Shown: positions 20,953-42,437, numbered from the stretch's first letter. The stretch is 54,243 nucleotides of DNA from a virus (IMGVR_UViG_3300047275_000087:1-54243); one strand, 5' to 3'. Notes: generated by a model not told the origin, from the letters alone. A program made the numbers and translations.

Positions 20953-21930
20953 ATGGCAGGCAATAACCCAGTTCTTCAAATTCTAAACATGGCCCCCAAG
21001 GCTCCGTCGTCTGTTCCACAGGCCGGGCAGCCAACGGTACAGGGCGCTTTGGCTACCAACTTGACTGGTGTGCCCGCGCCTCAAATGGCTCCTACTCCTA
21101 CTGCCCCCGGCATGGGAGCGGAACTTCCAGCGCCTACTACATCGCTTGACCTCCCTGCATCGTTGCAAGGTCTGCTTGGCTCTGGCACTCCTAACATTAC
21201 TGTCAACGAACAAAGCGTTGCGACTCCGATTCAGACTGGCACTGTTGCCTCGAATCCAAGTGCGCCGGTGCTTGACTTTCGTTTACAACCCACCTATGCC
21301 GATGGAGGTATGGTTGGTGCTGGTGGTATGCCTATTCGCCCTTCTGACGTAGGGCCGAAACAAGAGCGCCTAAGCCCTCAGGCTATTGAAATGCAACTCC
21401 AAGAGTTCATGCGTAGACAGCCTCAGGAAGTTGCTCGTATTCAACAAGCCATCATGGCTGGATACCAGTCTGGTGAGATTACCCCTGAGGAGTTGAACAT
21501 GGCAGGGCAACTTGCTATGACTGCGCTTCAGAATCCTGAAATGTACACTTACATCCGCCAGTTTGCAATTCAGCAAGGTATGGCTAACGAGGAAGACTTG
21601 TCTCCTGAATATGACCAAGGCCTCATCTTTGTTCTCCTCTTGGCTATTCGTGCGGTGCAAGGTAACACCCAGCAAGGTATGGCTGGTGGTGCACCCGGTG
21701 GAATGGGTGGTATGAACAACCAGCCTATGATGAGCATGGCTTCTGGTGGCTATGTACATATGGGTGACCATGCTGCTAAAGGCGGTAAGGTTACTGGCCC
21801 GGGCACTGGTACTAGCGATAGTATTCCTATCCGTGTATCCGCAGGTGAGTATGTAATCCCTGCCAAAGTGGTACAGGCTAAAGGTAAAGACTTCTTCGAC
21901 GCACTTCTCAAGAAATACCAAAACGCATGA
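20953..21930 (+). CDS. Putative internal virion protein
   Basis: P/Q-rich, with A.GG.V repeats and a C-terminal GPGTGTSDSIP..S.GEYVIPA domain. Confidence 0.65.
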   Translation: MAGNNPVLQILNMAPKAPSSVPQAGQPTVQGALATNLTGVPAPQMAPTPTAPGMGAELPAPTTSLDLPASLQGLLGSGTPNITVNEQSVATPIQTGTVASNPSAPVLDFRLQPTYADGGMVGAGGMPIRPSDVGPKQERLSPQAIEMQLQEFMRRQPQEVARIQQAIMAGYQSGEITPEELNMAGQLAMTALQNPEMYTYIRQFAIQQGMANEEDLSPEYDQGLIFVLLLAIRAVQGNTQQGMAGGAPGGMGGMNNQPMMSMASGGYVHMGDHAAKGGKVTGPGTGTSDSIPIRVSAGEYVIPAKVVQAKGKDFFDALLKKYQNA

Positions 21931-22415
21931 GTACTCTACCAGCAGGGTTTGACCCAATACCTCTTGACGACTTTGAACCATTGCTCCTTGCAACCAAGGA
22001 GCAGTTCGATATGTATTGGACTGCCACTAAACCTTTGCTTGAAAAATGTGTGAAGCGTGCAATGCACGGAGAGATGACGATTGACGATATATACAACTCT
22101 GCCTTACAAGGAAAGATGTATATATTTGTTGTCAAATGTGATAAAACAATCACTAAGAGTGTGAAGTTGGCACTGGTACTAGAAATTGTTCACTACCCTA
22201 AATTGGCTGCAATGAACATCGTTGCGCTTGGTGGTAGTGACTTAGACGCCTTACATGCTAAGTATTGGAAGATGCTGTGCGGTTGGGCGTATATGAATAG
22301 TGTCCGAGTCATTGAGGGATGGGTGTCCCCAGCAATGGAACGGGTAATTTCTCAATACGGTTTTAAGCCTGTGTATACACACATGCGACTTGAATTAACG
22401 GAGGCTATGAAATGA
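21927..22415 (+). CDS. GNAT-like protein preceding the ejection proteins
   Basis: Position and alpha/beta pattern (IVALGG...IEGW.SPAMER...YGF) resemble podovirus acetyltransferase-like assembly proteins. Confidence 0.5.
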   Translation: MSTLPAGFDPIPLDDFEPLLLATKEQFDMYWTATKPLLEKCVKRAMHGEMTIDDIYNSALQGKMYIFVVKCDKTITKSVKLALVLEIVHYPKLAAMNIVALGGSDLDALHAKYWKMLCGWAYMNSVRVIEGWVSPAMERVISQYGFKPVYTHMRLELTEAMK

Positions 22416-24118
22416 GCGCAACAACATTTGTTCGTATGCCCAGTGCCAAACAGATGGCAATGATGGGTATTCCTGATTTACCTGAGGCTGCATTTGGTGG
22501 GGACATCCCTCCCATGCAGCGCAAGGCTTTGGTTAAAGCGATGGGTATTCGCCCACAAGGCGGTGGTGGTGGTCTAAAAGCAGTTGTGGCAGTTGTTGCT
22601 GCGGTTGCAATTCCATTTGTAGCCCCTGCTATTGCTGCATCCATCGGTGTGTCCGGTGCGATTGCTGGCGCTGCGGCTTCCGCTGGCATCTCAGCGGCTA
22701 CTGCTGCTACCGTCGGTTCTGTGGTTGGCTCTGCGATTGTTGGTGCTGGCCTCGGAGCAGTAAGTGCTGCTGTGACTGGTGGCGATGTTGGTCGTGGTGC
22801 TTTGATGGGCGGTCTAGGTAGCGGTATCTCTGGCTATTTTGCTGCGCCTTCTATGGCTCCAAACGCAGGTGGCCCTGCTGTTGCTACAAGCCCCGGCTCA
22901 CCTAATTTTGTCGGCCCCGTACAAGGAGCACCAACCACTACTGTGGGTATTGCGAACCTTGGAGATGGTGGCGCTGCTGTGGCTACATTTGACCCAGCAA
23001 CTAAGACGTACATGCTGGCGAATGGTACGGCTGTTGACCCATCGGCTATTGCATACGGCGGTCAAGTTAACAGTTCGTTGGCTGCCACATTGAGCAGTTC
23101 TAATAACGTGCAAGGCGCAGCCAATGCTATTCAGGCATCTGGCACATTGTCGGTTAACACTCCTGTGGCGCTTGGTGGTAATGCGGCTAACCTTGGTACA
23201 ACAAGTTTTTACAACGCTAACCTAACGCCTGCTACCTATGGTGGTGCAGGTAGTGCGTACACTGCTAATAATGCTGGTGGTACATATGCTGCGCAGTCTG
23301 CTCCTGCATACGCTCAATCTGGTCAAGCCGTAACTGCGGCTACTGAAAGTGCGGCGGCTGCACAAGCAGCGTTTAGCCCAACTTATGCGGCTAACGTAAC
23401 AACTCCGGCTGCGGGAACTAATACTGGCGGTGCTACTACTGGTGGCGCACAAGGTGGCCCTGCGCAAGCCGCTCCTGCTACGCTGTCTGAAGCACTTAAA
23501 CAGAAACTTACTAATCCATCTAGCCAAGCAGACTTCGTGCTTCGCGCAGCGGGTCAATTGGTTGGTTCCCAGATTGCTGGTGACGGTTTGAGCGAAGAAG
23601 AAAAAGCATTGGTTGCACAGCAAAAAGCAGAACTCGAAAGTCTACGCGCTACCAACAAAGCGTTGTTTGACCAGAAGATTCAGCAGGCTCTTGACCTTGC
23701 TGGTGAGTCGAACTACTTTGACCCTGAGACATTTGGTCTGCGTGCTGCTCGTCAGGTTCAGAACGCAGGTGCTCGTGCTAAGCAAGAAGGTTTGCGTGGT
23801 ATTGACTCCCGTCGTGCTGGGCTGCGCCGAGCCGAAGAACGCCGATATAACTTGGGCATCGACACTGGTGCTCAAACTGCTTACCTACAAGGTATGGATA
23901 CGGCTGAGCAAAATAAACTGCGTGTTAAACAGGCAGGCTTGTCGGCTATTCCTAGCCAAGGGTATGAGGCTTCCAACATGCAATACGCTTCGTACCTTGG
24001 CAACATGTACGATGCTGCTGACCGTCGCCGTCGTGCGGCTGCGGGCGATATTGGTGACTTGTTTGGCGGATTCACTGGTGGGGCTAAATCATCCGGCACG
24101 ACCATTAAGATTGGTTAA
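22412..24118 (+). CDS. Putative DNA ejection (pilot) protein
   Basis: Ala/Gly-rich hydrophobic N-terminal helices and a C-terminal coiled coil. Confidence 0.65.
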   Translation: MSATTFVRMPSAKQMAMMGIPDLPEAAFGGDIPPMQRKALVKAMGIRPQGGGGGLKAVVAVVAAVAIPFVAPAIAASIGVSGAIAGAAASAGISAATAATVGSVVGSAIVGAGLGAVSAAVTGGDVGRGALMGGLGSGISGYFAAPSMAPNAGGPAVATSPGSPNFVGPVQGAPTTTVGIANLGDGGAAVATFDPATKTYMLANGTAVDPSAIAYGGQVNSSLAATLSSSNNVQGAANAIQASGTLSVNTPVALGGNAANLGTTSFYNANLTPATYGGAGSAYTANNAGGTYAAQSAPAYAQSGQAVTAATESAAAAQAAFSPTYAANVTTPAAGTNTGGATTGGAQGGPAQAAPATLSEALKQKLTNPSSQADFVLRAAGQLVGSQIAGDGLSEEEKALVAQQKAELESLRATNKALFDQKIQQALDLAGESNYFDPETFGLRAARQVQNAGARAKQEGLRGIDSRRAGLRRAEERRYNLGIDTGAQTAYLQGMDTAEQNKLRVKQAGLSAIPSQGYEASNMQYASYLGNMYDAADRRRRAAAGDIGDLFGGFTGGAKSSGTTIKIG

Positions 24119-24130
24119 GGGGGCACAAAC

Positions 24131-26731
24131 ATGGCGCTCAATCTAAGTCAAACCGCCAGCAGTATGGGCATCATCTCTGGTCGCCAGAGAGAGGCTGAGC
24201 GTGCTGAATGGCAAGCCCGTGTCGAGGAGATGCGGTTGCAAGCGTTTAATCGTGAGGAACTGAACCGCCAACAAGACACACAAACCACGCAGCAAATGTT
24301 GGCGGGGTTGAACTTTAACCCCACGCAAAACTACAATCCGTTCTTCAGTACTGATGTACGGCAAGTTCCAGTTGAGCCTGCGGCTCCTGCGCCTGCTGCT
24401 GCGGCTCCTGCACCTGCACCCGCTGCTGCGGCTCCTGCACCTGCACCTGCACCTGCTCCCGCCCCCGCTGGTGTTCGTCTACCCGAGGCGCGGGTAAACC
24501 CCCCAACTGTTACAGATACAAACATACCTTTGCGCTCACCTATTGCTGCGCAAAACATTGCAGACTGGCAAGCACGCACTGGGCAGAAACTCCCTGCTGG
24601 GGTTGAAAAGTTCAGTCAAGGGCAAACCCTTACCCACCTTACTGTACCGGACTTCAACCCAAACCTTCCTAGCCGTGCTGGCTTGGTTGACGCAGAAGGT
24701 ATTCCGAAGATTGACCCGAACTCTGCTGGTTTTCAACGGTCTCGGCAAGAAGGTGCTGCGCGTAGTGCAGTTATTCAACAGCGTGAGCAAATTGCTGTTG
24801 GCTTAGCCACTGGTAAATTTGGCCCTGCTGGTGCTCCGTCTGGGCAACTGTACGGCTACTTCTTCGACAATAAGAGCGAGGCCGAGAAACGCGATATTGC
24901 TACCGCAGCAATGAAGTGGTTCCGTAGTGATGAATCACTTGCATATTTCATGCAGAACCCACAAGCACTGGCGCAAGCCAAGATTGACCCAATGGGTTTC
25001 TATGCTGCGTTTGCTGCTGAGGCTCCTGTTCGTGAAGCCCGTCGTCAATCTGAAATGCGCTCTGAGCAGACATCGACAGGCGCACCTGAAGTTGTTGGAC
25101 AAAAACTTCAACCAAAAGCAATTGACCAGAAACTTGTGGTCAGTTCGGCTAAGACTACTGACAAGCGTATCGAGCAACTGACTCCTATGCTTCCCAAGAT
25201 TTTGGAGAAGGCAGAGACTAAACGAATTCTTAGCCGTGCTGGTGTTCTACAAGTAGACCCTGCTGCGGCTTTGGCTGTGTATGGTCTTGAGTCAAACTTT
25301 GGTGCTGCTACTAAAGATAGTTCCGCTGGCGCAAGTGGCCCGCTTCAAGTTATGCCCGATACATTCGCGCTGATGAAGAACTGGTACACCAACGCTGCCA
25401 ACATTCAGAAGTACAAGATTCCGCAAGAGCAAGTAGATGCTGCAAGGAATATGCAGTTCGATGCTTCTGGCAAGATTGATGCTGGTCTATTGGTGCTCAA
25501 GTACAACGAGTATATTGGCAATCCTAAGAACCTTTGGGGTGCTGGATACCAAGGTAACGCTGACCAAGTTAGGAAGTTTGGACGCCCGCTCAATGCACAT
25601 GATGGCGCAATGATGAACGCAGACTACAACCGTGGATTTATTGCGCTCTACAACACTGCGTTAACTGCACTGTCTGGTAACCAACAACAATTGGCTGCTG
25701 CACCTGCTGCTCCCGCCGCTGCTCCTGTTGCTGCTGCTCCTGTTGCTGCGGCTCCTGCGCCTGCTGCACCCGCTCCTGCTGCACCCGCTGCGCCTGCGCC
25801 TGCTGCTCCTGCGCCTGCTGCACCCGCTCCTGCCGCCGCTGCGGTTGTTGCGAATGTAGAAAAGCCACAGATTAAGATGCCTCCGGCTGGCACGATTGAC
25901 CCCAATACATACGACCAGTTTACAAAGCAAGCCTTACAAATGCGGGACTACACTCGTCAGTTGGCAGTAAACGCTGCTAACAGTGGCAACCCTGCTAAAG
26001 CACTGGAGTACATCGGGAAAATCTACTCTACCGACCTTGACTTGTACCGCATGATGGGCGACCGTGGCGTGGCTGAGTTCACTCGCTTTGGTGACCCAAC
26101 TCGTATGGTTGGTGTGTGGAGTCAGTTCACAGGACAAAAACTCCAGTTACAACCACGCAGTGATGGTAAGTGGGACTTGTTCTCCAATGGCAAACCATTG
26201 GCTCAGGGCGTATCTGGTTCTGAGTTGATTGGCTATGCCAAAGAAGATATGGACGCCAAGTACTTGGCAAGTAAGTCGGCGCTTAAAGACTACATGTTCA
26301 AGAAATCGTTTGAGTCTGGACTCAAGATTGAGGAGACCACCGCTGGTGAACGCGCCAAGGCAATGGGGCAAATCTACATTGATACCAACAAGATTAACCG
26401 TCAACTCATTGCTGACATTTCTAAAGACATCAACGCTGGCAACATCAAGATGGCTCAGACAGCATTTGAGAACGCCACTGGTGTCAAGGTTACGATGTCT
26501 CCTGACGGTAGTGGTAAGGCACTGATTGTGTCCAACGACGGCTCTCGCATTGGCGTTGTCGATATGTCTGCTGGTACTATTACACTGAATGGCGAAACAA
26601 TCAACAAAGCGCCCGGAAGTCTGTTTGTGCTTGGAAGCGGTATGCCTAGTGCTGGTATGCCAATCTTCGGCCCAGCAGCAGAGAAAGCAGGAGTTAAACC
26701 TCCTGTGGCTGGGCTTTTAGTAAATCCGTAA
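24131..26731 (+). CDS. Internal virion protein with lytic transglycosylase domain
   Basis: SLT motifs LESNFG...SSAGASGPLQVMPDT, flanked by Ala/Pro linkers. Confidence 0.8.
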   Translation: MALNLSQTASSMGIISGRQREAERAEWQARVEEMRLQAFNREELNRQQDTQTTQQMLAGLNFNPTQNYNPFFSTDVRQVPVEPAAPAPAAAAPAPAPAAAAPAPAPAPAPAPAGVRLPEARVNPPTVTDTNIPLRSPIAAQNIADWQARTGQKLPAGVEKFSQGQTLTHLTVPDFNPNLPSRAGLVDAEGIPKIDPNSAGFQRSRQEGAARSAVIQQREQIAVGLATGKFGPAGAPSGQLYGYFFDNKSEAEKRDIATAAMKWFRSDESLAYFMQNPQALAQAKIDPMGFYAAFAAEAPVREARRQSEMRSEQTSTGAPEVVGQKLQPKAIDQKLVVSSAKTTDKRIEQLTPMLPKILEKAETKRILSRAGVLQVDPAAALAVYGLESNFGAATKDSSAGASGPLQVMPDTFALMKNWYTNAANIQKYKIPQEQVDAARNMQFDASGKIDAGLLVLKYNEYIGNPKNLWGAGYQGNADQVRKFGRPLNAHDGAMMNADYNRGFIALYNTALTALSGNQQQLAAAPAAPAAAPVAAAPVAAAPAPAAPAPAAPAAPAPAAPAPAAPAPAAAAVVANVEKPQIKMPPAGTIDPNTYDQFTKQALQMRDYTRQLAVNAANSGNPAKALEYIGKIYSTDLDLYRMMGDRGVAEFTRFGDPTRMVGVWSQFTGQKLQLQPRSDGKWDLFSNGKPLAQGVSGSELIGYAKEDMDAKYLASKSALKDYMFKKSFESGLKIEETTAGERAKAMGQIYIDTNKINRQLIADISKDINAGNIKMAQTAFENATGVKVTMSPDGSGKALIVSNDGSRIGVVDMSAGTITLNGETINKAPGSLFVLGSGMPSAGMPIFGPAAEKAGVKPPVAGLLVNP
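24375..24470 (+). repeat. Low-complexity (Ala-Pro)n coding repeat
   Basis: Tandem GCACCT/GCTCCT units; a second block lies at about 25694-25843. Confidence 0.8.
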
Positions 26732-26741
26732 TGAGGTAAAT

Positions 26742-29700
26742 ATGGCGAATCCTGCAACCCCCGCTGGACTGTCATTTGCAGATGTCAACATGGGCAGTAT
26801 GGGCGCAGACCTAAACACTGTGCTCAATCCCTATGCAGGCTTCTCGCAAATGCCACGAAGCGGAACTGAGAACATGATGCCGTCCCAAGTGGACACAGCA
26901 GTTCTTGGGCGGGAGTTAGTCAAGCAAAGCCAGTTCACCATGCCGGAGATTAAGCGTCCTCCGGTTGTGGCATACAGCCCGTCCAACAAGACGTTGTTCG
27001 TTAACGGTGCGCAGTTTGCTGCCGATGACGATGCACTGGCGTTGCAGACTGAAACACTTCTATCAAGACCCGGTGTCGGTATGCCGCAAGGTGGCGACTG
27101 GGTGCAACTTGACCCCAGTGCTTATGGTCAATACCTCAACACAATCAAGAACCCCGGCCTAGGCAAACTAGCCAAGAAGAACTTTGGCATTGGTCTGGAC
27201 AATATGCAAATGCTCGCGGGTCGCGGCTTGCAGTTCTTGGGTGCGGAAGAAACTGGTCAGCGTATTGTTGATGCCCAAGTGGGTACTGACACCATGCGTG
27301 GTGACCTTCAGAAGTCCTCGCCGTATATCCGTGAGTTCTCTGATGTCAAAGATGCCAATACTGCGATTGACTGGCTTGTAGCCACCATTGCGCAGCAAGG
27401 CCCGAACATCCTTGAATCCATTGCTACGGCTGCCGCAGGTTTTGCGGTTGGTACTGCAACAGGTGGCCCTCTTGCTGGTGGCGGTGCGGCACTTGCTGGC
27501 TTGGCTGGTAAAGAAACCTTCAAACAATCTGTTCTTGCTGCTATCAAAAAGAAAGCCGCAGGTGAGGTGCTTGACGCAGTAGAAACAAAACTACTTCGTG
27601 AAGCCGCTGGTATTGCAGGCGCAACCATATTCACTACAGCGCAGAACTACGCCACGGGTGTGGCTGACATCTATGGTGAACAACGAGACCAAGGGCAAGA
27701 CAACCGTCTTTCCGCACTGGCTTCTGCTGTACCTTACGCTGCACTTGAATCACTCCCTGAGTTTGTACTTGCGGCTCGCTTGTTTGGTACAGGCGGTATT
27801 GCCAAGCAGACTGGTCGTGCACTCAAAGACATTCAAGGTGAAACCATGTTGGGCACAGCCGCCTTGCGTGGTGGTGAACTTCTAAAGCGTGCTGGTAAAG
27901 GCTTTGTTGTTGGTGGTACTGCTGAAGGCGCGACTGAACTTGGGCAAGAAAGCCTACTCATTGCGAACACAGGTCAAGACTTTGGCGACCCCAATGTGCA
28001 AAAGCGGTTGATGGAGTCATTTGCCGCAGGCTTCGGCACTGGTGGTGTGCTTGGTGCGGCGGCAAACTTGCGCCGTGGGCCACTTACTAAAGAGCCAACC
28101 AACCTATTGAACCCAAGCCAGACTACCGAGCCTCCTGCTCCATCCACTGCGTTGGCAATCATTCCTCCTCCACCGGGTGCTCCCGTTGGTGGCCCAACTC
28201 AAACTGGTGGTATGGGTGCACGCCCTGACTTTGTGGCTGGCGCTGATGGTGTACGCCCATCTGTACCTACTGACCGCATCTTTACTGGTCAGGTTGCCCC
28301 CGGTCAATTCGGTGGTGCTCAAGGCGTTCTCGACCTTGGTGGTGCGACCATTGGTGAATTGCAGCAACGCAGTAACCAGACTGGTGAACTTGCCCCACGC
28401 ATGGTGTGGAATCCCCAGACTCAACAGTACGAGCAACAAGCCGTAACTGCACCTCCATCTGACCGGATGGCATTGCCTGCGCCTCAAGCCCCCGTTGACC
28501 CACGGCAAATGGCATTGCAGTTTGCGCCTCCTGCTCCGAGCGGTGTGGGCTTTACAGATGCACAGCCTGCGTTTAACCCTGCAATGGCTCAGCAGTTGCA
28601 GGCTGCGATTCAGCAACGCCAAATACAAGAAGCCTACGCACAGCGTATGGCTCAGGAGCAAGCACAGCGTGAAGCCGACATGAATCGTCTGGCTATTCAA
28701 GCGCAGAATCAAAGACAGTTGGACTTTGCGGCCCAGCAGCAACAGCAGCCAGTCACACAGCAACAACTTCCTATGCGTCCGTTGCCCGTGCGGCAGCCGC
28801 AGCAGTTGTCATTGTTCAACCGCAGACAAGCCCCAGTGCCTTCTCGTGCTGAAGGCTTACGCCGTGGTGTCGGCACGCAAGTGCCTGCGCCCGCACCTGT
28901 GGTTCAGGGTACTCCTACCCCCGGACAGTTCCAGCGTGCAGGTCAGTTGTCTCTATTTACCCAACAAGGTCAGCCTTCCGTGGCAGCACTCAAGAGTGCA
29001 GGTACACGCCAAGCCGTACCGACTCCAACTGTGCAGCAGGGTGCTACGCAGATTCCGCCGACAGGTGCGCCTGTTACGGCAGTAACCGCTACTAAAGCGA
29101 AAGCCGCAGTGCTCAAGAAAGGAAAAGCAAATGCCACTCAAAAAGGGAAGCAGCAACAAGATAGTGTCAGCCAACGTCAGCAAGATAATGCGGGAGTACA
29201 AGGCGGGGGGCAAACTGGGAACCAGCCCACGACCCAAGTCAAAGGCGGCGGCACTCAAGCAAGCGGTGGCGGCAAGTCTCTCAAGCGCGGGAAGAAGCAA
29301 GAAGAAGTAGTAGCCGCACCAGTCGTAACTGCTAAGCAGGAAGCGCCTAAACCTCCGACTCCTCCGAAGGGTGGCAAAAAGAAACTTGCCAAGGGTGCAG
29401 AAAAAAAGCCCGAAGCAAAGGCTAAGGCTACTCCTGCCAAAGCCGCCCAGTTGCAGAAAGGCCCAAGTGGTCTTGCGGCAATGGTCGGTCAACTTCTTGG
29501 TACAACGCAGCAACCTGCGGTGGTGGAAAGCAAAGCCAAGAAAGGCGTGCAAGAAGCCAGCGAGGAAACAAAGGCTGCGAACGAAGAACTCGATATGGCT
29601 ATCGAGACTATCGAAACAACTAAGAGTCCTGCTGCATATGTAGAGGCTCTGTTTGAAATCGTGAGTGCCTACGCACTGACTTCAAACGTCAAAGCATATC

Positions 29701-32700
29701 TCCGCACTGCATCCGAAAGGTTCTTGCAGGATGGAGGTATTCCCCAGCGGGACTTCATAGCCGCACTAAGGGAAGTGGCACTCAACGAGGAGAGCATCGG
29801 GCCTAAGACTCGCTTGTACTCCTTGTTGGCTGACCACGGGTTGCTGAACGATGCCAACATTCAAGCGTTGATTCGTCAGCCGGGGGCTAAGGTCAAACAA
29901 GAAGCCGTGGTTGACAAGCCTGTTAATACTCAGACAGAAAACCTTGGTGAGATTCGCATGGCTGAACTCATCAATAACCGTAATGGCTACCTGAACAAAG
30001 CCCAACTACGCCGTGCTGCGCTCATCCTTTATGTGGATGTAGATGACGACAACTTTAATGTAAGCGGTCGTGGACGCATCAAAGACTTCTTTACCGCTGA
30101 TGGTGAGCCTATCATCGTGCAGGTTCCCGGCACAAGTAACTTTGTATTGGCGACCAAAGAAGAAGGCAAGATGTCTAAGGAAGAATTTGCCGAGAAGCAC
30201 AAGGATGCTAGACAGGCAATGCGTGACCTTGAGGCTGAAGAAACACAGACCACACTGGATGACCTCCAGTATGACCCGCTGTATGACAACGCACGCAGTG
30301 ACCGTGGCGATTTGGAGTTCTATCGTGTTGACGGGCGTCCTACTGAACCAATGAAGGTTGGCCCACTGCGCTTGTTTGCCGCTCGTGTGGTGTCTAAGTT
30401 TGCTCGTAAGCCTACTGTCAATGTGTTTGCCAACTTGGCTGACATGCAAAAGGCTAACCCCTCGCTGTTCGCCGCTGCTGCCAAGGCACGCAAGGAAGGC
30501 GACATTGAGCATGTTAATGCTGCCGGTATGGCATGGGGTAACAATGTCGTTCTGTTTGCAGACTTCATCGAGTCCGAACAACAAGCCCGCTTCATTATCG
30601 CTCACGAAACACTTGGGCACGTTGGCTTCCGTGGCTTGTTCAATGACCGTGCACTGAACGCCATCCTGAAACTTGTTGCTGATTCAGACCCACAACTCAA
30701 GTACGCAGCAGAGGTGTATGCAGCAGGACGAGGTGTCTCGTTCCTTGAGGCAGTCGAAGAAGTGTTGGCTGACCGTGCTGCCGCCGTGGATACTAATACG
30801 CTTCTGCGTTTCTGGAGTTGGGTGAAAGACCAGTTGAACAAGATTGGCCTCAAGTTCAATGACGATGCGGCTCGCTACCTCATTGGTCTATCACGCAAGT
30901 ATGTGCGTCAAGGCACTGGGCGTAGTGAAGTCAACCTATCCGGTCTGTTCAAAGAGATTGACCAGTCGTTGCTAAACGACCAGTCGAATTTGGAAGTGCT
31001 GCGCTTTGCTGCAATGGCTCCTCAGGGTTCTATGACCCTTGCAATGGGCAACATTAACCGTAATGCTGCAATGCACGGTCAGTTATCCCGTGCCGTAAGC
31101 GATTTGATTGAAGCCAAAGAACGCACGGCTGAAGCCCGTAAGCAAGCCAAGGGGTTGTGGAAAAACACTCAAAACGTGGCGCAGTCCATCCTCGATGGTG
31201 TGCAGACTATGGATAACCTAGCCCGCAAGAGCAAAGGCTTCTCCAAGATATTTGAGTTGCTCCAACTCAAGGGTGCAAAACAAAACCAATACAAGCAGAA
31301 GTATGCAGACGGCACAGCCACTGCACACAAAGCCAAGTTTCTGGGCCTCGGTGAAGGCGCAGACATCGAGCAACAAGTTCGTGCGGGTGAGTTGCTTGCA
31401 TACGGCTCGCTCTTTAAGATGAACTCCATCTCTGATTCTCAGTTAGACAAGATGGATAACCCTGTGTTCTTTGACCCAGACTCAGGTATCTTGGATGTGA
31501 ACATTGATGCGTTCCGCGCATTGGTTGACGCAGGCCGCTTGTCTGTGGAAGATTTCAAGAAAGGCTTTGAAGTCCAGCAGGGCACAAAAGAAGTGCCCAT
31601 GACTGAGGAGCATCGTCAAGAACTCGCAGCAGAGCGTGACCTTGCTATTACCAAACTAGAAGCAGCCCGTGACAAAGCGTTTGCCCGTGTTGACAAGAAG
31701 ATTGCAGCCGAGACTGATGAAGATATGAAGGCTGAACTTGCTTTAGAACGCAAGCGGGATGAGAAGAAATTCAATCAAGACATCGAGCAGACCAAACGCT
31801 TATATACCAAGCGGATGAAAGAGCCGATGTACGAAGTGCCTAACATGGCTCCTACTCCTGAGTGGTTCAAAGACCTCACAGAAGATAGCGTTGAGTGGAA
31901 GATGTACAACGAGTTCGCAGAAACAATGGCGATGAGCCACATTGATGTTCTGCGAAGCAAGTACATTGGCGCAGTTTACGAGCAAAAGAGGGCCATCTCC
32001 GCAGGGGTGCGGGGCGCATTTAAGAAGTCTACACCACTTACGGATGTTGAGCGTAGATTTATTGAAGATGCCACTGGCATGTTTGATGAGATGCGCATGA
32101 AGGGTGCAGAGTTCCAAGGCAACAGGCTCAAGTTGTTAGCAACCTCTGAGAAGGATGCACTTGAGTGGCTGCGTATGAAGTTTGCCCGTGCGTTCTATAC
32201 TGACTTGGCTTTGAATGACCTCAAGACCATGATGCCGGGGTATACCCCTGCTCAAGTGGAGTCGCTCGTTAAGAGCATGAGGGCTAAGTTGCAGACGCAA
32301 ATTGACCCCGAAGTAGACCCAATTAAAAACAGTTCTATCTGGGCGTTGGAGCACCGCATTGAAGAACGCTCGATGTTTGCGGCTTCTATCAATGATGACC
32401 AGTTGTACGCCAAGCGTTCAATCGCAGGTGCTTATGTACCGCTTACTCGTGAAGGCGACTGGCAAGTCCGTGTGCAGGCATTTACAACCGATAAGGACGG
32501 CACTAAGTACCCAGTCAAACTGACTGATGGTCAGCAAAACTCACTGGCTTTCTACAAGACTGGTACGCAGAAAGATGCTGAGCAGTACCAAGAGGAACTA
32601 AACGCCATGCTCAATGGCGAGTACGAGATGCGGGATGAGAAGGGCAATCTACAAAAGGTTCGCCTCGAAGCCGTTGCATCTGTGACTCGTCAGACCCCTG

Positions 32701-34868
32701 ACCTTGTGGACGTGTTGCACTATGACGAGGTGATGTATTCGCTCAGCCGCTTGGGCATCCAGTTGTCGCCTGAGGTTCGCCAAGTTCTTGTGCAGAAAGT
32801 GTCCGGTCAAAATTCTCGTGCTCGTGCAAACTTGCAGCGTGCAGGTGTTCCCGGTTGGGACAAAGATATTGTCCGCAGTTCGTCTGCGTTCTTGGAGCAG
32901 CAGGCATATGTTGCAGCCAACAAAGAATACCGCCATCGTTTTGACGAGGTGCTTGACGACAACGATAACTGGAGTGACAACCCTGAACGTCTTGCTACAT
33001 TGAAAGCCAAGTGGGAATCCGCCACGGGGGAGGCCAAAGAAGTAGCGGCTCGTGAGTACTTCCAAGAGAAGTTCTTCCAAGACAATGTGGTTGAGTACAC
33101 CAAAGATGGTCGCCGTATCGAGCGAGGTCTGTACTACAACGAGCGTGCTAAGTCCATGCTTGCATGGATGGACTCAACTGGCGACATCGTACATGCCGAT
33201 GACATTTGGTCTAACAACGAGTGGAGTGTGGCTACCCGTACATGGGCGGCATTGGCTCAACTGGGTGGCTCGATTGCTACTGGTATCACGCAAGTGCTTT
33301 CGCTGCCAACAAACTCGTGGGCGTACCTCTCATCGTTCAATCCTAAGACTGGCTTTGGTGTCGGCTTAGGTGCAGGTAAGGCAGGTAAGTTACTCACCCA
33401 GTTCTTGATGAGCACGGCTAACCCCAAGTACGCTGACCTTGCATGGCTCGAAGCCCGACTTCAAGAGTTTGAGGTTGCTGAAAAGAATGGTGCGAAGTAC
33501 ACCAAAGATGGATTGACTGGTAGTGAGTTGCGTTTCTTGAAGGACATGACCGAGCAACAACGCTTGGATGCAGCCTCGTTTAACGCCATGACAGGAACCA
33601 GTAAGGGTCGCAAGATGACAGGCAACCCAACCTTCCAGAAAATTATTCAAGGTTGGATGTTCCCCTTCTCCTACTCGGAGCAGGTCAACCGCCGTGTCAC
33701 ACTTCTAGCAGCATATCGTGGTGAGTATGAGCGGCAGATGGCGACGCACGGCGACCCATCCATTGCGGATGTGAAAGCGCGTGAGGTATCCACCAAAGCA
33801 TTGGACGCGACCCAAGGTGATTACGCACAGTACAACCGCCCTGCGTTCTTCCGTGGCGGGGTGCAAGCCTTCATCTACATGTACAAGCAGTACCCAATCA
33901 TGATGATTCAACTGCTGAAGAACATGAACTACGAAGGCAGAATCATCATGATAGGTTCGTTGCTACTCCTGTCCGGCGTGCGTGGACTACCGGGTGCTGA
34001 CGACTTGTTGGACGTTCTTGATGCTATCTGCCAACGCCTCGGTTTGAAGATTGGCTCAGTCGAAAAAGAGTTTGCTCGTCTCACCGCTGATGTGTTTGGT
34101 GCGGAACTTGCCTCTGAGATTAACCCAATCGTAATGCGTGGTTTGTTTGACCGCATGACTGGTTGGTCATTCTCCAACCGCTTGGGTCTTGGCGACATAA
34201 TCCCCGGAACTGGCATCCTCAAACCCTCAGCGACTAAGGACGAAATCCTGCGTGAAGTCGAGAACTTAGCGGGTGCTCCTACATCCTTCATCGTGGGTGT
34301 GCTTAACTGGGGCGGAAGCACATTGCCAGCAGTTGTGACTGGTCGTCAATCACCTATAGAGTTATTGAGAGATAACCCAGTAAGGGCATTTAAGAATGTG
34401 GGTGATGCGTGGAAATACGCTGACACTGGCGCAATCCTCGACAACAAGGGCTATGTGGTTGCTAAGAATGTATCCACATGGGAGTTGCTCGGTAAAGCAA
34501 TGGGCTTCTACCCAAGTCGTGCGCAGATGCAGATGGACTGGATGTCAGCAGACAGACAGGAACAAGCGTACATGTCCATGATTAAAACCGAACTTACCCG
34601 TGAAGGTGTGGCAGCACGGCTTGAGAATGACACTGAACGCTTGGCTCAAGTCAGGAAGTTTGTGGCTGACTGGAACGAGGACACGAAAGGCACACGCCTT
34701 GAGATGCGTAACTTTGACCGTGGCTTGACCCAAGCCTACCGAGAAGCAAGCAAACCACTGGCTATCCGTGCGTTGAAGTCATCGGCTAAAGGTGGTCGCA
34801 TGGAGGCAAAAGATATGCTTCGCCTCTATGGAGTAGACGAGGAAACCCTTGCGGGCATCCCCGACTAA
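26742..34868 (+). CDS. Giant polyvalent ejection protein (2708 aa)
   Basis: Last structural gene. Contains a zincin-like AHETLGH...EEVLA, a PLxRFG-like YVPLTREGDW, and a C-terminal TQGDY..YNRP helical region as in large polyvalent proteins. Confidence 0.75.
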   Translation: MANPATPAGLSFADVNMGSMGADLNTVLNPYAGFSQMPRSGTENMMPSQVDTAVLGRELVKQSQFTMPEIKRPPVVAYSPSNKTLFVNGAQFAADDDALALQTETLLSRPGVGMPQGGDWVQLDPSAYGQYLNTIKNPGLGKLAKKNFGIGLDNMQMLAGRGLQFLGAEETGQRIVDAQVGTDTMRGDLQKSSPYIREFSDVKDANTAIDWLVATIAQQGPNILESIATAAAGFAVGTATGGPLAGGGAALAGLAGKETFKQSVLAAIKKKAAGEVLDAVETKLLREAAGIAGATIFTTAQNYATGVADIYGEQRDQGQDNRLSALASAVPYAALESLPEFVLAARLFGTGGIAKQTGRALKDIQGETMLGTAALRGGELLKRAGKGFVVGGTAEGATELGQESLLIANTGQDFGDPNVQKRLMESFAAGFGTGGVLGAAANLRRGPLTKEPTNLLNPSQTTEPPAPSTALAIIPPPPGAPVGGPTQTGGMGARPDFVAGADGVRPSVPTDRIFTGQVAPGQFGGAQGVLDLGGATIGELQQRSNQTGELAPRMVWNPQTQQYEQQAVTAPPSDRMALPAPQAPVDPRQMALQFAPPAPSGVGFTDAQPAFNPAMAQQLQAAIQQRQIQEAYAQRMAQEQAQREADMNRLAIQAQNQRQLDFAAQQQQQPVTQQQLPMRPLPVRQPQQLSLFNRRQAPVPSRAEGLRRGVGTQVPAPAPVVQGTPTPGQFQRAGQLSLFTQQGQPSVAALKSAGTRQAVPTPTVQQGATQIPPTGAPVTAVTATKAKAAVLKKGKANATQKGKQQQDSVSQRQQDNAGVQGGGQTGNQPTTQVKGGGTQASGGGKSLKRGKKQEEVVAAPVVTAKQEAPKPPTPPKGGKKKLAKGAEKKPEAKAKATPAKAAQLQKGPSGLAAMVGQLLGTTQQPAVVESKAKKGVQEASEETKAANEELDMAIETIETTKSPAAYVEALFEIVSAYALTSNVKAYLRTASERFLQDGGIPQRDFIAALREVALNEESIGPKTRLYSLLADHGLLNDANIQALIRQPGAKVKQEAVVDKPVNTQTENLGEIRMAELINNRNGYLNKAQLRRAALILYVDVDDDNFNVSGRGRIKDFFTADGEPIIVQVPGTSNFVLATKEEGKMSKEEFAEKHKDARQAMRDLEAEETQTTLDDLQYDPLYDNARSDRGDLEFYRVDGRPTEPMKVGPLRLFAARVVSKFARKPTVNVFANLADMQKANPSLFAAAAKARKEGDIEHVNAAGMAWGNNVVLFADFIESEQQARFIIAHETLGHVGFRGLFNDRALNAILKLVADSDPQLKYAAEVYAAGRGVSFLEAVEEVLADRAAAVDTNTLLRFWSWVKDQLNKIGLKFNDDAARYLIGLSRKYVRQGTGRSEVNLSGLFKEIDQSLLNDQSNLEVLRFAAMAPQGSMTLAMGNINRNAAMHGQLSRAVSDLIEAKERTAEARKQAKGLWKNTQNVAQSILDGVQTMDNLARKSKGFSKIFELLQLKGAKQNQYKQKYADGTATAHKAKFLGLGEGADIEQQVRAGELLAYGSLFKMNSISDSQLDKMDNPVFFDPDSGILDVNIDAFRALVDAGRLSVEDFKKGFEVQQGTKEVPMTEEHRQELAAERDLAITKLEAARDKAFARVDKKIAAETDEDMKAELALERKRDEKKFNQDIEQTKRLYTKRMKEPMYEVPNMAPTPEWFKDLTEDSVEWKMYNEFAETMAMSHIDVLRSKYIGAVYEQKRAISAGVRGAFKKSTPLTDVERRFIEDATGMFDEMRMKGAEFQGNRLKLLATSEKDALEWLRMKFARAFYTDLALNDLKTMMPGYTPAQVESLVKSMRAKLQTQIDPEVDPIKNSSIWALEHRIEERSMFAASINDDQLYAKRSIAGAYVPLTREGDWQVRVQAFTTDKDGTKYPVKLTDGQQNSLAFYKTGTQKDAEQYQEELNAMLNGEYEMRDEKGNLQKVRLEAVASVTRQTPDLVDVLHYDEVMYSLSRLGIQLSPEVRQVLVQKVSGQNSRARANLQRAGVPGWDKDIVRSSSAFLEQQAYVAANKEYRHRFDEVLDDNDNWSDNPERLATLKAKWESATGEAKEVAAREYFQEKFFQDNVVEYTKDGRRIERGLYYNERAKSMLAWMDSTGDIVHADDIWSNNEWSVATRTWAALAQLGGSIATGITQVLSLPTNSWAYLSSFNPKTGFGVGLGAGKAGKLLTQFLMSTANPKYADLAWLEARLQEFEVAEKNGAKYTKDGLTGSELRFLKDMTEQQRLDAASFNAMTGTSKGRKMTGNPTFQKIIQGWMFPFSYSEQVNRRVTLLAAYRGEYERQMATHGDPSIADVKAREVSTKALDATQGDYAQYNRPAFFRGGVQAFIYMYKQYPIMMIQLLKNMNYEGRIIMIGSLLLLSGVRGLPGADDLLDVLDAICQRLGLKIGSVEKEFARLTADVFGAELASEINPIVMRGLFDRMTGWSFSNRLGLGDIIPGTGILKPSATKDEILREVENLAGAPTSFIVGVLNWGGSTLPAVVTGRQSPIELLRDNPVRAFKNVGDAWKYADTGAILDNKGYVVAKNVSTWELLGKAMGFYPSRAQMQMDWMSADRQEQAYMSMIKTELTREGVAARLENDTERLAQVRKFVADWNEDTKGTRLEMRNFDRGLTQAYREASKPLAIRALKSSAKGGRMEAKDMLRLYGVDEETLAGIPD

Positions 34869-41777: not shown

Positions 41778-42437
41778 TTAAACCCTAGCGTAGTCACAGT
41801 CGTGTCGAGCAGGGCAGTACCTACACAAACCGCTAGGCTTGGCAGGCCAGTTGTCATGCTCCAATGAACTGTGGATGCGTTGGATTCGCTTCATGATGTC
41901 AGCCCATATCGGGTTGACCTCTGACCTCTGATATGTCTCTGTATCAATCTCAAATGTCTTGAGCCACACCAGTGAAGTCTTGACAACATCTATCTCAGGG
42001 AAGTGCTTGAACACCTGCGCAGCGAACAGTTGCATCTGAAATTGGTCAGCCTTCCGCTTACCTGTTTTCCAGTCCATGACATTAGCCATGTTACCGTTTA
42101 TTACAAGGATGTCAAGTTTACTTCTCAGCCATGCGTCAGCATCCCACCACCCAGTGGGTGTCAGGTTATCACTCAGCACAAGTTCTTTCTCGATGTACAA
42201 CTCACCGCCACGGGAGATGCGCTCCACCGATGAGCACAATGGCTCGTAATGGGCGACCTCCTGTGGGAGTAGGGCGTCTTGCTTCAGGCGATGCTCAAGG
42301 TATTCATGGATTCTTTCACCATACTTACTTGCTTCACCGCCTTCATCCACAACATCTTTGACAACTCGTTGCCGAAAGTACCGCAACGGACAGTTCTCAT
42401 ACAACTTAATTGACGAGTATGAATGGGAAAGGCGCAT
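41778..42437 (-). CDS. PD-(D/E)XK Cas4/RecB-like exonuclease
   Basis: SYS...CP, G..IH, LD...DWKTGK, Q..LFA and a C-terminal C..C....C. Confidence 0.85.
   Translation of the reverse strand: MRLSHSYSSIKLYENCPLRYFRQRVVKDVVDEGGEASKYGERIHEYLEHRLKQDALLPQEVAHYEPLCSSVERISRGGELYIEKELVLSDNLTPTGWWDADAWLRSKLDILVINGNMANVMDWKTGKRKADQFQMQLFAAQVFKHFPEIDVVKTSLVWLKTFEIDTETYQRSEVNPIWADIMKRIQRIHSSLEHDNWPAKPSGLCRYCPARHDCDYARV

Follow-up and report, generated by a model that had tools for sequence, protein, structure and literature searches.

P0001 is a 2708 amino acid (aa) protein encoded by a single giant gene of a virus whose record is complete, with direct terminal repeats, and comprises 54,243 bp (IMGVR_UViG_3300047275_000087:1-54243; this whole stretch of DNA is called the window below). 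The linker of P0001 is, on balance, read as carrying a multivalent set of motifs that would bind the β-sliding clamp (DnaN) and act as a tether. Central to this reading are two copies of the pentapeptide QLSLF, which behave like real short linear motifs of the β-clamp-binding type, a conclusion supported at the level of sequence. A first-pass annotation of the DNA had named five clamp-like strings in the linker, and all five are present in the translation of nucleotides (nt) 26742-34868 at the positions that it gave:

26742-34868, plus strand: giant gene for P0001, 2708 aa, one uninterrupted open reading frame (ORF), from the ORF list and its translation
28092-29141, plus strand: linker rich in Q, P and A that holds the motif cluster, aa ~451-800, delimited by composition
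28320-28337, plus strand: Site A, QGVLDL, aa 527-532, family consensus QGVLDIF
28506-28523, plus strand: Site B, QMALQF, aa 589-594, family consensus QGALQF, a hexamer of the form Qxx-L-x-F
28710-28727, plus strand: Site C, QRQLDF/QLDF, aa 657-662 (QLDF at aa 659-662, nt 28716-28727), at the C-terminal end of a helix
28797-28868, plus strand: Module 1, PQ-QLSLF-NRRQAPVPSRAEGLRRG, aa 686-709, with the core QLSLF at aa 688-692, nt 28803-28817
28944-29003, plus strand: Module 2, QLSLF-TQQGQPSVAALKSAG, aa 735-754, with the core QLSLF at aa 735-739, nt 28944-28958

Both QLSLF strings match exactly the published β-clamp-binding consensus, QL[S/D]LF, as quoted in PMC12867686 and PMC3716654. The 213-aa zone that spans the motifs (residues 527-739) is compositionally biased, with 45 Q, 30 A and 25 P, and was therefore shuffled 200,000 times at constant composition. 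QL[SD]LF occurs twice in the zone against a shuffle mean of 0.0004, and none of the 200,000 shuffles contained two matches; the more relaxed QLxLF likewise occurs twice against a mean of 0.0077 (P = 5e-5). The number of QLSLF pentamers thus exceeds what composition would yield, the outcome that the first-pass annotation had named as refuting, and chance is rejected as their origin. The loose hexamer Qxx[LMIV]x[FLMW] is only weakly enriched (4 observed, shuffle mean 1.17, P = 0.025), and the statistical weight is therefore carried by the two pentamers. Their coding copies differ at 4 of 15 nucleotides and every difference is synonymous, which rules out a recent duplication of the DNA and argues that the peptide, not the DNA, has been preserved. 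When the window was scanned for Q[LMIV]x[LM]F in six frames, with stop-to-stop frames no shorter than 100 aa, three instances were found, namely the two QLSLF and one QMQLF. The latter lies at 42024-42038 on the minus strand, at about residue 134 of a 219-aa exonuclease (gene 41778-42437), where it is probably buried in a folded domain.

A whole-length search recovered 119 further homologues of 1720-2973 aa, with identities from 96% down to ~30%, many of which sit on contigs of ~54 kb. Motifs were counted in residues 501-850 of these and the window's own protein, 120 in all. QL[SD]LF and QLxLF were set a priori, and Q[LMIV]x[LM]F was picked after the homologues had been seen:

QL[SD]LF: 30 of 120 proteins matched in residues 501-850, 33 matches inside these residues and 0 outside
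QLxLF: 104 of 120 proteins matched in residues 501-850, 119 matches inside and 1 outside
Q[LMIV]x[LM]F: 115 of 120 proteins matched in residues 501-850, 225 matches inside and 34 outside

The density of the last pattern is 5.36 per 1000 aa in residues 501-850 versus 0.12 elsewhere, and 32 of the 34 outside matches come from a single site, Q[VI]WMF, that is conserved within the folded C-terminal domain. Two copies per zone are the rule (88 proteins); 21 proteins have one copy, one has three, five have five and five have none. The first-pass annotation had made persistence of the motifs in spite of a variable linker a point to be checked, and with 115 of 120 proteins retaining the pattern they do persist. 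Two of the five non-matching homologues are truncated N-terminally, and one of these has motifs at shifted positions. P0104 carries QLELL in place of a strict match, and P0118 and P0119 lack the pentamer and contain the strings QLELPL and QLPLPF instead, which we take to be similar to the hexameric motifs that Hda and Pol IV use. That of Pol IV, with its six residues, is mentioned in PMC3716654.

Conservation of single columns was assessed over the N-terminal 1150 residues in 36 representatives that are less than 70% identical to each other, the shorter proteins P0061, P0062 and P0064 being excluded from this alignment. The mean fraction of the commonest residue is 0.45 in the linker versus 0.63 in the N-terminal domain, and ten key motif positions rank among the 30 best-conserved of the 350 linker columns. 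In Module 1 (site 1) these fractions are 0.97 for P686, 0.92 for Q688, 0.89 for L691, 0.94 for F692 and 1.00 for P698, and in Module 2 (site 2) they are 0.97 for Q735, 0.92 for F739, 0.94 for G743, 0.94 for P745 and 0.97 for A749. The strict pattern Q[LMIV]x[LM]F is kept at site 1 in 32 of the 36 representatives and at site 2 in 28, where the other variants include QGILF, QNILF and QVPLI. Across the 67 instances of the pattern in the representatives, position 2 is L, M, I or V, position 4 is L or M and position 3 is unconstrained (P in 28, S in 17, E, A and Q in 5 each, D in 4); Q and F are fixed in this set by the search pattern itself, and the alignment columns are independent of it. Judged by sequence, this is a substitution pattern of the clamp-binding type, in which Q and F are nearly fixed and position 3 is free. 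The Q-to-Q spacing of the two pentamers is 40-50 residues in 104 of 117 aligned proteins. The two sites have an extended pattern in common and are evidently paralogous repeats.

The remaining three sites fare unequally. Sites A and B are well conserved (Q527 0.97, V529 0.92 and L530 0.92; Q589 0.94, L592 0.86 and F594 0.78) yet QGVLDL and QMALQF are non-canonical as clamp motifs. In the clade of P0052-P0056, pentamers (QMGLF, QLPLF) stand where other members have the hexamer-type sites, which gives five pentamers in all, and because of this replacement it is suggested that the two types of site are interchangeable and do the same job. Site C is the weakest candidate of the five, since it is only moderately conserved (R658 0.83, L660 0.69, F662 not conserved, with QRQLD[LIFM] and ARDL-Y among its variants) and falls in what is predicted to be a confident helix.

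The linker was modelled with AlphaFold 2 (AF2) as residues 440-960, using the 36-row alignment, and the result is largely without confident structure (mean predicted local distance difference test, pLDDT, of 57; predicted template modelling score of 0.23). Both QLSLF, QGVLDL and QMALQF are predicted as coil, in 10-residue blocks with mean pLDDT of 46-61 (48-50 for the blocks of QGVLDL and 53-57 for those of QMALQF). The sole confident element is one helix that contains QRQLDF/QLDF:

28578-28742, plus strand: long α-helix rich in Q, A, E and R, aa 613-667, residues 174-228 of the AF2 model, block means 81-95

Both pentamers are thus predicted to be exposed and flexible, whereas QLDF is predicted to be helical and is for that reason a poor candidate for a clamp motif. 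The description of the whole segment as disordered, made by the first-pass annotation, holds for both QLSLF and for Sites A and B and fails for the helix. A role of the linker in membrane insertion was rejected, the sole strongly hydrophobic 19-residue window of the whole protein lying at aa 2399-2419.

A complex of two copies of E. coli DnaN (the Swiss-Prot reference) with residues 670-760 of P0001 was modelled and scored 0.64 (0.62-0.67 between runs), versus 0.16 for the best of three controls. Of 80 solved complexes 58 attained the score mark applied, as did 2 of 110 mismatched pairs, a calibration that is only roughly valid for this kind of job. Contacts agreed between runs to at least 73% and the pLDDT of the partner was at least 52. 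In the model, residues 685-692 contact residues 172, 174-177, 242, 247, 360 and 362-366 of the first clamp copy, and residues 733-739 contact the same pocket on the second, where the flank 741-753 also touches the surface. The pairs of lowest expected error are Q688 with 362-364, 175 and 320, and L691 with 172, 174-177, 247 and 360. The crystal structure of the clamp with a UmuC peptide defines the hydrophobic pocket by Val-247, Leu-177, Val-360, Pro-242 and Met-362, and shows the peptide glutamine bonded to Met-362 and Pro-363 (PMC3716654). The two QLSLF sites are therefore predicted to occupy both canonical pockets of one E. coli clamp dimer, an outcome in favour of the clamp binding that the first-pass annotation had proposed, with the E. 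coli clamp as a stand-in. Taken together, its interpretation as a clamp binder is partly supported, namely for the two QLSLF, on the strength of the shuffles, conservation, predicted coil and model; it does not carry over to the helical QLDF, and QGVLDL and QMALQF remain non-canonical.

The route by which P0001 would meet a clamp is suggested by its C-terminus:

33495-34757, plus strand: C-terminal PLxRFG ('tail-700') domain, aa 2252-2672, NCBIfam NF032893, PHROG 11358

This domain scores 177.2 bits against NF032893, for which the cut-off is 100, and the last ~450 residues are the only part of P0001 that matches known phages. By tblastn the domain is 26-29% identical to sequences in 39 phage records, most of them from F116-like phages of Pseudomonas, and its relatives there are annotated as structural proteins. 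It aligns to the last ~400 residues of F116 p60. Hardies et al. (PMC4819975) describe F116 p60 and its counterpart H66 gp60 as homologues of the T7 internal virion protein D (IVP-D), a link for which joined family profiles were needed, and say of H66 gp60, which is structural, that it is 'reminiscent of N4 gp50' and joined to a domain whose function must be intracellular. Because the PLxRFG domain is shared with F116 p60, an IVP-D homologue, P0001 is inferred to be an ejection protein. The label of a giant ejected protein given by the first-pass annotation is less secure, ejection being deduced from homology and gene position; direct similarity to T7 gp16 was not detected.

Three further regions of P0001 were delimited:

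26742-28091, plus strand: N-terminal domain, aa 1-450, Gly/Ala-rich and conserved, 270 clusters at E ≤ 1e-3
29079-29561, plus strand: strongly basic stretch rich in K, G, A and P, aa ~780-940, directly after the motif cluster, delimited by composition
30294-30929, plus strand: zincin-like HExxH domain, aa ~1185-1396, with HETLGH at nt 30603-30620

The N-terminal domain has no credible Pfam match, and its look-alikes in the ESM Atlas are hypothetical proteins of viruses, plus a weak lead to LPD22. The basic stretch (21 K+R versus 7 D+E in aa 801-900) is mostly predicted as coil, most blocks having a mean pLDDT of 37-49, and could bind DNA. In the zincin-like domain (AF2 model pLDDT 73.7) H1288, E1289 and H1293 of the HExxH motif are invariant in the 36 representatives. 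Structural comparison with VIA-align gave middling values, with anthrax lethal factor as the best match (Z 8.6, root mean square deviation (rmsd) 4.2, 168 residues aligned), followed by ArdC (Z 6.6, rmsd 4.3, 112 aligned), PPEP-2 (Z 6.4, rmsd 4.9, 157 aligned) and PprI (Z 6.0, rmsd 3.4, 91 aligned), with weak matches to SPRTN (Z 4.5, rmsd 3.2, 91 aligned) and Wss1 (Z 4.1, rmsd 4.2, 91 aligned); many other zincins score Z 4-7. Foldseek found no match of this model in the PDB at E ≤ 0.001. The whole protein matched no Pfam family, LPD and PolyVal included, at E ≤ 0.01, searches with six pieces of it gave none that is credible, and the family profile matched only low-complexity PDB sequences (eS8, TBP; best E-value 0.0019).

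Most homologues at ~56-63% identity (P0007-P0047 and others) carry a precomputed Pfam MORN repeat (PF02493). A segment YEDGSVYTGQLK follows the linker in P0007, P0035 and P0052 and is not present in the window's protein, and the MORN match may correspond to a segment of this kind.

It is proposed that P0001 would be packaged in the capsid and ejected together with the DNA via the PLxRFG domain, and that its N-terminal parts would reach the cytoplasm by analogy with H66 gp60 and N4 gp50. Each pentamer would then put its Q into subsite 2 of the clamp and its L-F pair into the hydrophobic subsite 1, and the two pockets of one clamp dimer, if filled together as in the model, would add avidity. A few pre-made molecules could in this way become tethered to clamps loaded on host DNA, i.e. 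to replication forks. They would bring along the zincin-like domain and the adjacent basic stretch, to which the phage DNA would probably be attached by its leading end, and all this would precede the expression of phage genes. It is judged somewhat more probable than not that the motifs bind the host clamp. Within this estimate, localisation or tethering, which in itself falls a little short of an even chance, is favoured over inhibition of host replication by titration, which is rated low. The T7 record annotates IVP-D at ~3 copies per virion; at this number titration of all clamps is unlikely and a few tethered molecules fit better. The most far-reaching version is a 'clamp staple', a virion-delivered protein that seizes DNA-loaded host clamps with 2-5 motifs within moments of injection. 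It is put forward tentatively and is doubtful, and the same applies to the joint proposition that such a device would link the host replisome to the incoming genome end, via the basic stretch, and to the zincin-like protease. The protease SPRTN is tethered to PCNA, and the clamp staple would be its counterpart in a bacterial virus.

Several observations count against clamp tethering. The first is the distribution of the motif. The N-terminal domain was searched against 1.84 billion representatives, and the best 150 of the 270 hits at E ≤ 1e-3 yielded 80 new full-length relatives, all more distant. Between residues 400 and 950 the strict motif is present in 26 of these and absent from 54. A generalised pentamer/hexamer pattern is only weakly enriched in the 54 (14 observed versus 7.4 +/- 2.6 in shuffles, with a maximum of 16 in 300 shuffles). 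The motif is therefore dispensable for the wider family, and the absence from homologues that the first-pass annotation had regarded as damaging is not seen within the window's own clade and is seen outside it. The giant proteins of F116 (p60), Pseudoalteromonas phage Y7 and RHph_TM3_14A contain no motif match either; F116 p59 and p60 lack even Q[LMIV]x[LMIV][FL], and the 4675-aa DarB-like protein of Y7 has no clamp-type motif. Delivery is a further weak point, as the identity of P0001 as an ejection protein derives from homology and gene position and as hhalign of the family profile against T7 gp16 gave nothing (probability 0.1). The family-A polymerase and primase-helicase of the phage are without Q[LMIV]x[LM]F in the six-frame scan, and a clamp is thus not evidently needed for its own replication. 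With regard to the complex model, many clamp-peptide complexes have already been solved and the high score may reflect memory of these, and E. coli DnaN is a stand-in that may not be the clamp of the host.

The family distribution was also followed on a tree. In a FastTree phylogeny of the N-terminal domain (116 rows, 60 of them motif-bearing) the motif requires 16 changes versus 30-47 for 200 shuffles of the labels, and one clade of 28 rows is 96% motif-positive; the test shows clustering and lability of the motif and nothing more, labels being shared by kinship. At 90% identity the family falls into at least 145 clusters, and the N-terminal domain is shared by 270 clusters at 50% identity, many members being from marine metagenomes. 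Among the nearest cultured phages compared, no carrier of the motif cluster was found. RHph_TM3_14A encodes a 2307-aa giant protein (gene EVB41_084, L011 472-7395, minus strand) that shares only the C-terminal domain with P0001 (27.6% identity over ~330 aa, E = 2e-16). Its N-terminus is rich in Gly and Ala and its linker in Pro, and the protein is free of clamp-type motifs. N-terminal-domain hits of only 640-780 aa are frequent (e.g. P0191, P0193, P0242, P0243), most of them motif-free, and may stem from incomplete contigs or from a split of the gene, with the N-terminal domain encoded separately.

The last of the adverse points concerns the surroundings of the pentamers and leads to the most serious rival, in which the modules are conserved linear motifs for another partner and the likeness to clamp motifs is coincidental. 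Such a partner might be another host protein, for instance a chaperone by which the ejected chain is pulled or refolded, or a phage protein, i.e. the portal, the capsid interior or another internal virion protein, with a part in packaging or ordered ejection. The flank consensus is PQ-QLxLF-xRRxAPxPSRAEGLRRG for site 1 and QxxLF-TQxGQPSVAALKSAG for site 2. The conserved RR-G after site 1 and GQPSVAALKSAG after site 2 lie beyond the usual clamp-binding motif, as does the conserved P at -2, both sites share, in 58 of 67 instances, P at +10, which is more than the clamp pocket requires, and the commonest residue at position 3 is P, versus S or D in the consensus. The conserved flanks make a different or larger partner possible, since the modules extend over 20-25 aa with conserved positions of their own (P686, P698, R707/R708, G743, P745, A749, L750 and A753), and the LxLF of site 1, with the basic residues that come after it, would also be a fitting target for a protein that binds hydrophobic peptides generically. 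Yet with Q invariant, positions 2 and 4 occupied by L/M, F at position 5 and no constraint on position 3, the pattern is exactly that of the clamp consensus. A signal for assembly would be expected family-wide, which does not agree with the 54 motif-free relatives, the copy number of the motif ranges from 1 to 5, and the flank of site 2 is also placed on the clamp surface in the model. On this evidence another partner is unlikely, while retaining a real share of the probability.

A second rival accepts clamp binding and assigns it to sequestration, in which host replication or repair would be shut off by blocking both pockets of the dimer. Bivalent docking in the model would suit this, the staphylococcal phage proteins Twort gp168 and G1 gp240 are listed as DnaN-targeting with shut-off of host replication (PMC3594737), and overproduced MuC of phage Mu is lethal through clamp binding (PMC12867686). 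The arithmetic is unfavourable, as ~3 copies with 2-5 motifs each make only 6-15 motifs per virion. Bacterial cells hold hundreds of clamps, and small marine cells may hold far fewer. Sequestration of host clamps, one of the roles floated by the first-pass annotation, is accordingly implausible at the IVP-D copy number and is rated improbable as a reading.

Less probable still is that the motifs are processing sites at which the linker is cut by the zincin-like domain of P0001 or by a host protease, releasing the N-terminal domain. Short conserved motifs in an exposed interdomain linker, in the same chain as an invariant HExxH domain, could be read in this way, but 2-5 equivalent cuts within 200 residues would have no evident purpose, the 40-50-residue spacing and the exact clamp consensus would be left unexplained, and to our knowledge no protease is specific for Q-L-x-L-F. 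That the strings have no function and are remnants of an ancient internal repeat within a low-complexity region rich in Q and L would account for the extended pattern common to sites 1 and 2 and for the biased composition, but can be set aside as highly improbable given the shuffles, the key columns at 0.89-0.97 amid variable neighbours at ~30% overall identity, and the synonymous-only differences between the two QLSLF copies.

The window is a genome of podovirus type, and the giant gene closes its plus-strand structural module, which runs in the order terminase, portal, major capsid protein, tail fibre, internal virion protein and then the giant gene. The minus strand encodes a primase-helicase, a helicase, the exonuclease and a family-A DNA polymerase. 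No dnaN gene and no transfer RNA genes were found in the window, the GC content of which is ~0.50. Polymerase (37% identity) and portal (35%) place Rhizobium phages of the RHph_TM3_14A type nearest among cultured phages, and the portals of HMO-2011-type marine phages are ~26% identical to that of the window. Megablast of the giant gene against 50,697 phage records gave zero matches. A scan of genome contigs matched four short contigs of metagenome-assembled genomes that are assigned to unrelated phyla and are in all likelihood phage DNA binned wrongly. The interval from the PHROG-511 internal virion protein to the giant gene holds three ORFs (325, 568 and 866 aa, at 20953-26731), which may encode additional ejection proteins. 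For the two longer ones PHROG gave no match, and of the 325-aa ORF only a short C-terminal piece matches, one that is common to tape-measure and endolysin families. Two antisense ORFs on the minus strand overlie the linker region (28104-28766, 220 aa; 28953-29552, 199 aa); both are wholly within the conserved giant gene and are most likely spurious.

Clamp-binding motifs are known from other mobile elements. MuC, a 16.5-kDa DNA-binding activator made after infection by phage Mu, has two such motifs at its termini; its binding to DnaN has been shown and is required for function, and the motif consensus of the Mor/MuC family is Qx[D/E][L/M]F (PMC12867686). In P0001, a protein of 2708 aa from the structural module, the motifs lie in contrast internally, within its linker, and their binding is modelled only. 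Tn7 TnsE, the TnpA of the Tn3 family and transposases of insertion sequences also bind DnaN (PMC11417375; PMC4549789). They resemble P0001 in being proteins of mobile elements with a short motif of the DnaN-binding type, which in their case serves to find replicating DNA. The transposon proteins act as recombinases or select targets, and each has one motif (in TnpA a QLxxLR within a helix), whereas P0001 has 2-5 motifs in a predicted disordered linker and is a presumed ejection protein. Restriction of the motif to certain lineages has a precedent in TnpA, where it tracks sub-branches of the Tn3 family (PMC11417375), and the motif of the giant protein is likewise clustered by clade (16 versus 30-47 changes).

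Twort gp168 and G1 gp240 differ from P0001 in that they are presumably small early-gene products and not virion proteins. In the review table that lists both as targeting DnaN, no evidence for use of a QLxLF motif is seen (PMC3594737).

The overall architecture has closer parallels among ejected proteins. The C-terminal PLxRFG domain of P0001 is homologous to the end of F116 p60, and the combination of an ejection domain with intracellular cargo is as described for H66 gp60 and N4 gp50 (PMC4819975), in the present case from sequence. The cargo differs, being a methylase-like domain in H66 and F116 and an RNA polymerase in N4. The polyvalent proteins of phages and conjugative elements (Iyer et al. 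2017) are, like P0001, giant, multidomain and presumably delivered with the DNA. The zincin-like domain of P0001 resembles their ArdC-type zincins, and the ESM Atlas gives leads to LPD1, LPD22, LPD23 and ART-PolyVal clusters, but the Pfam domains of the LPD and PolyVal type were not detected in P0001. Neither 'clamp' nor 'DnaN' occurs in the main text of Iyer et al. (2017), and a literature search found no report of clamp-binding motifs in a virion or ejection protein. Clamp-binding motifs in phage and transposon proteins are thus already known, and what appears to be new, by comparison with these systems, is their placement in a presumed ejection protein.

Clamp-binding motifs are a common route by which bacterial proteins, some transposons and phage regulators reach replicating DNA. 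If the binding proposed here is true, the phage engages the host replisome with a protein that it has brought along, ahead of transcription. The clamp staple, if true, would be the first such device for host takeover that is independent of phage gene expression, and it would be widely distributed within a single clade of marine podoviruses that are abundant and uncultured. A further asset of the family is its natural, putatively bivalent clamp ligands with a conserved spacer, which may be of interest for the design of clamp-directed inhibitors.

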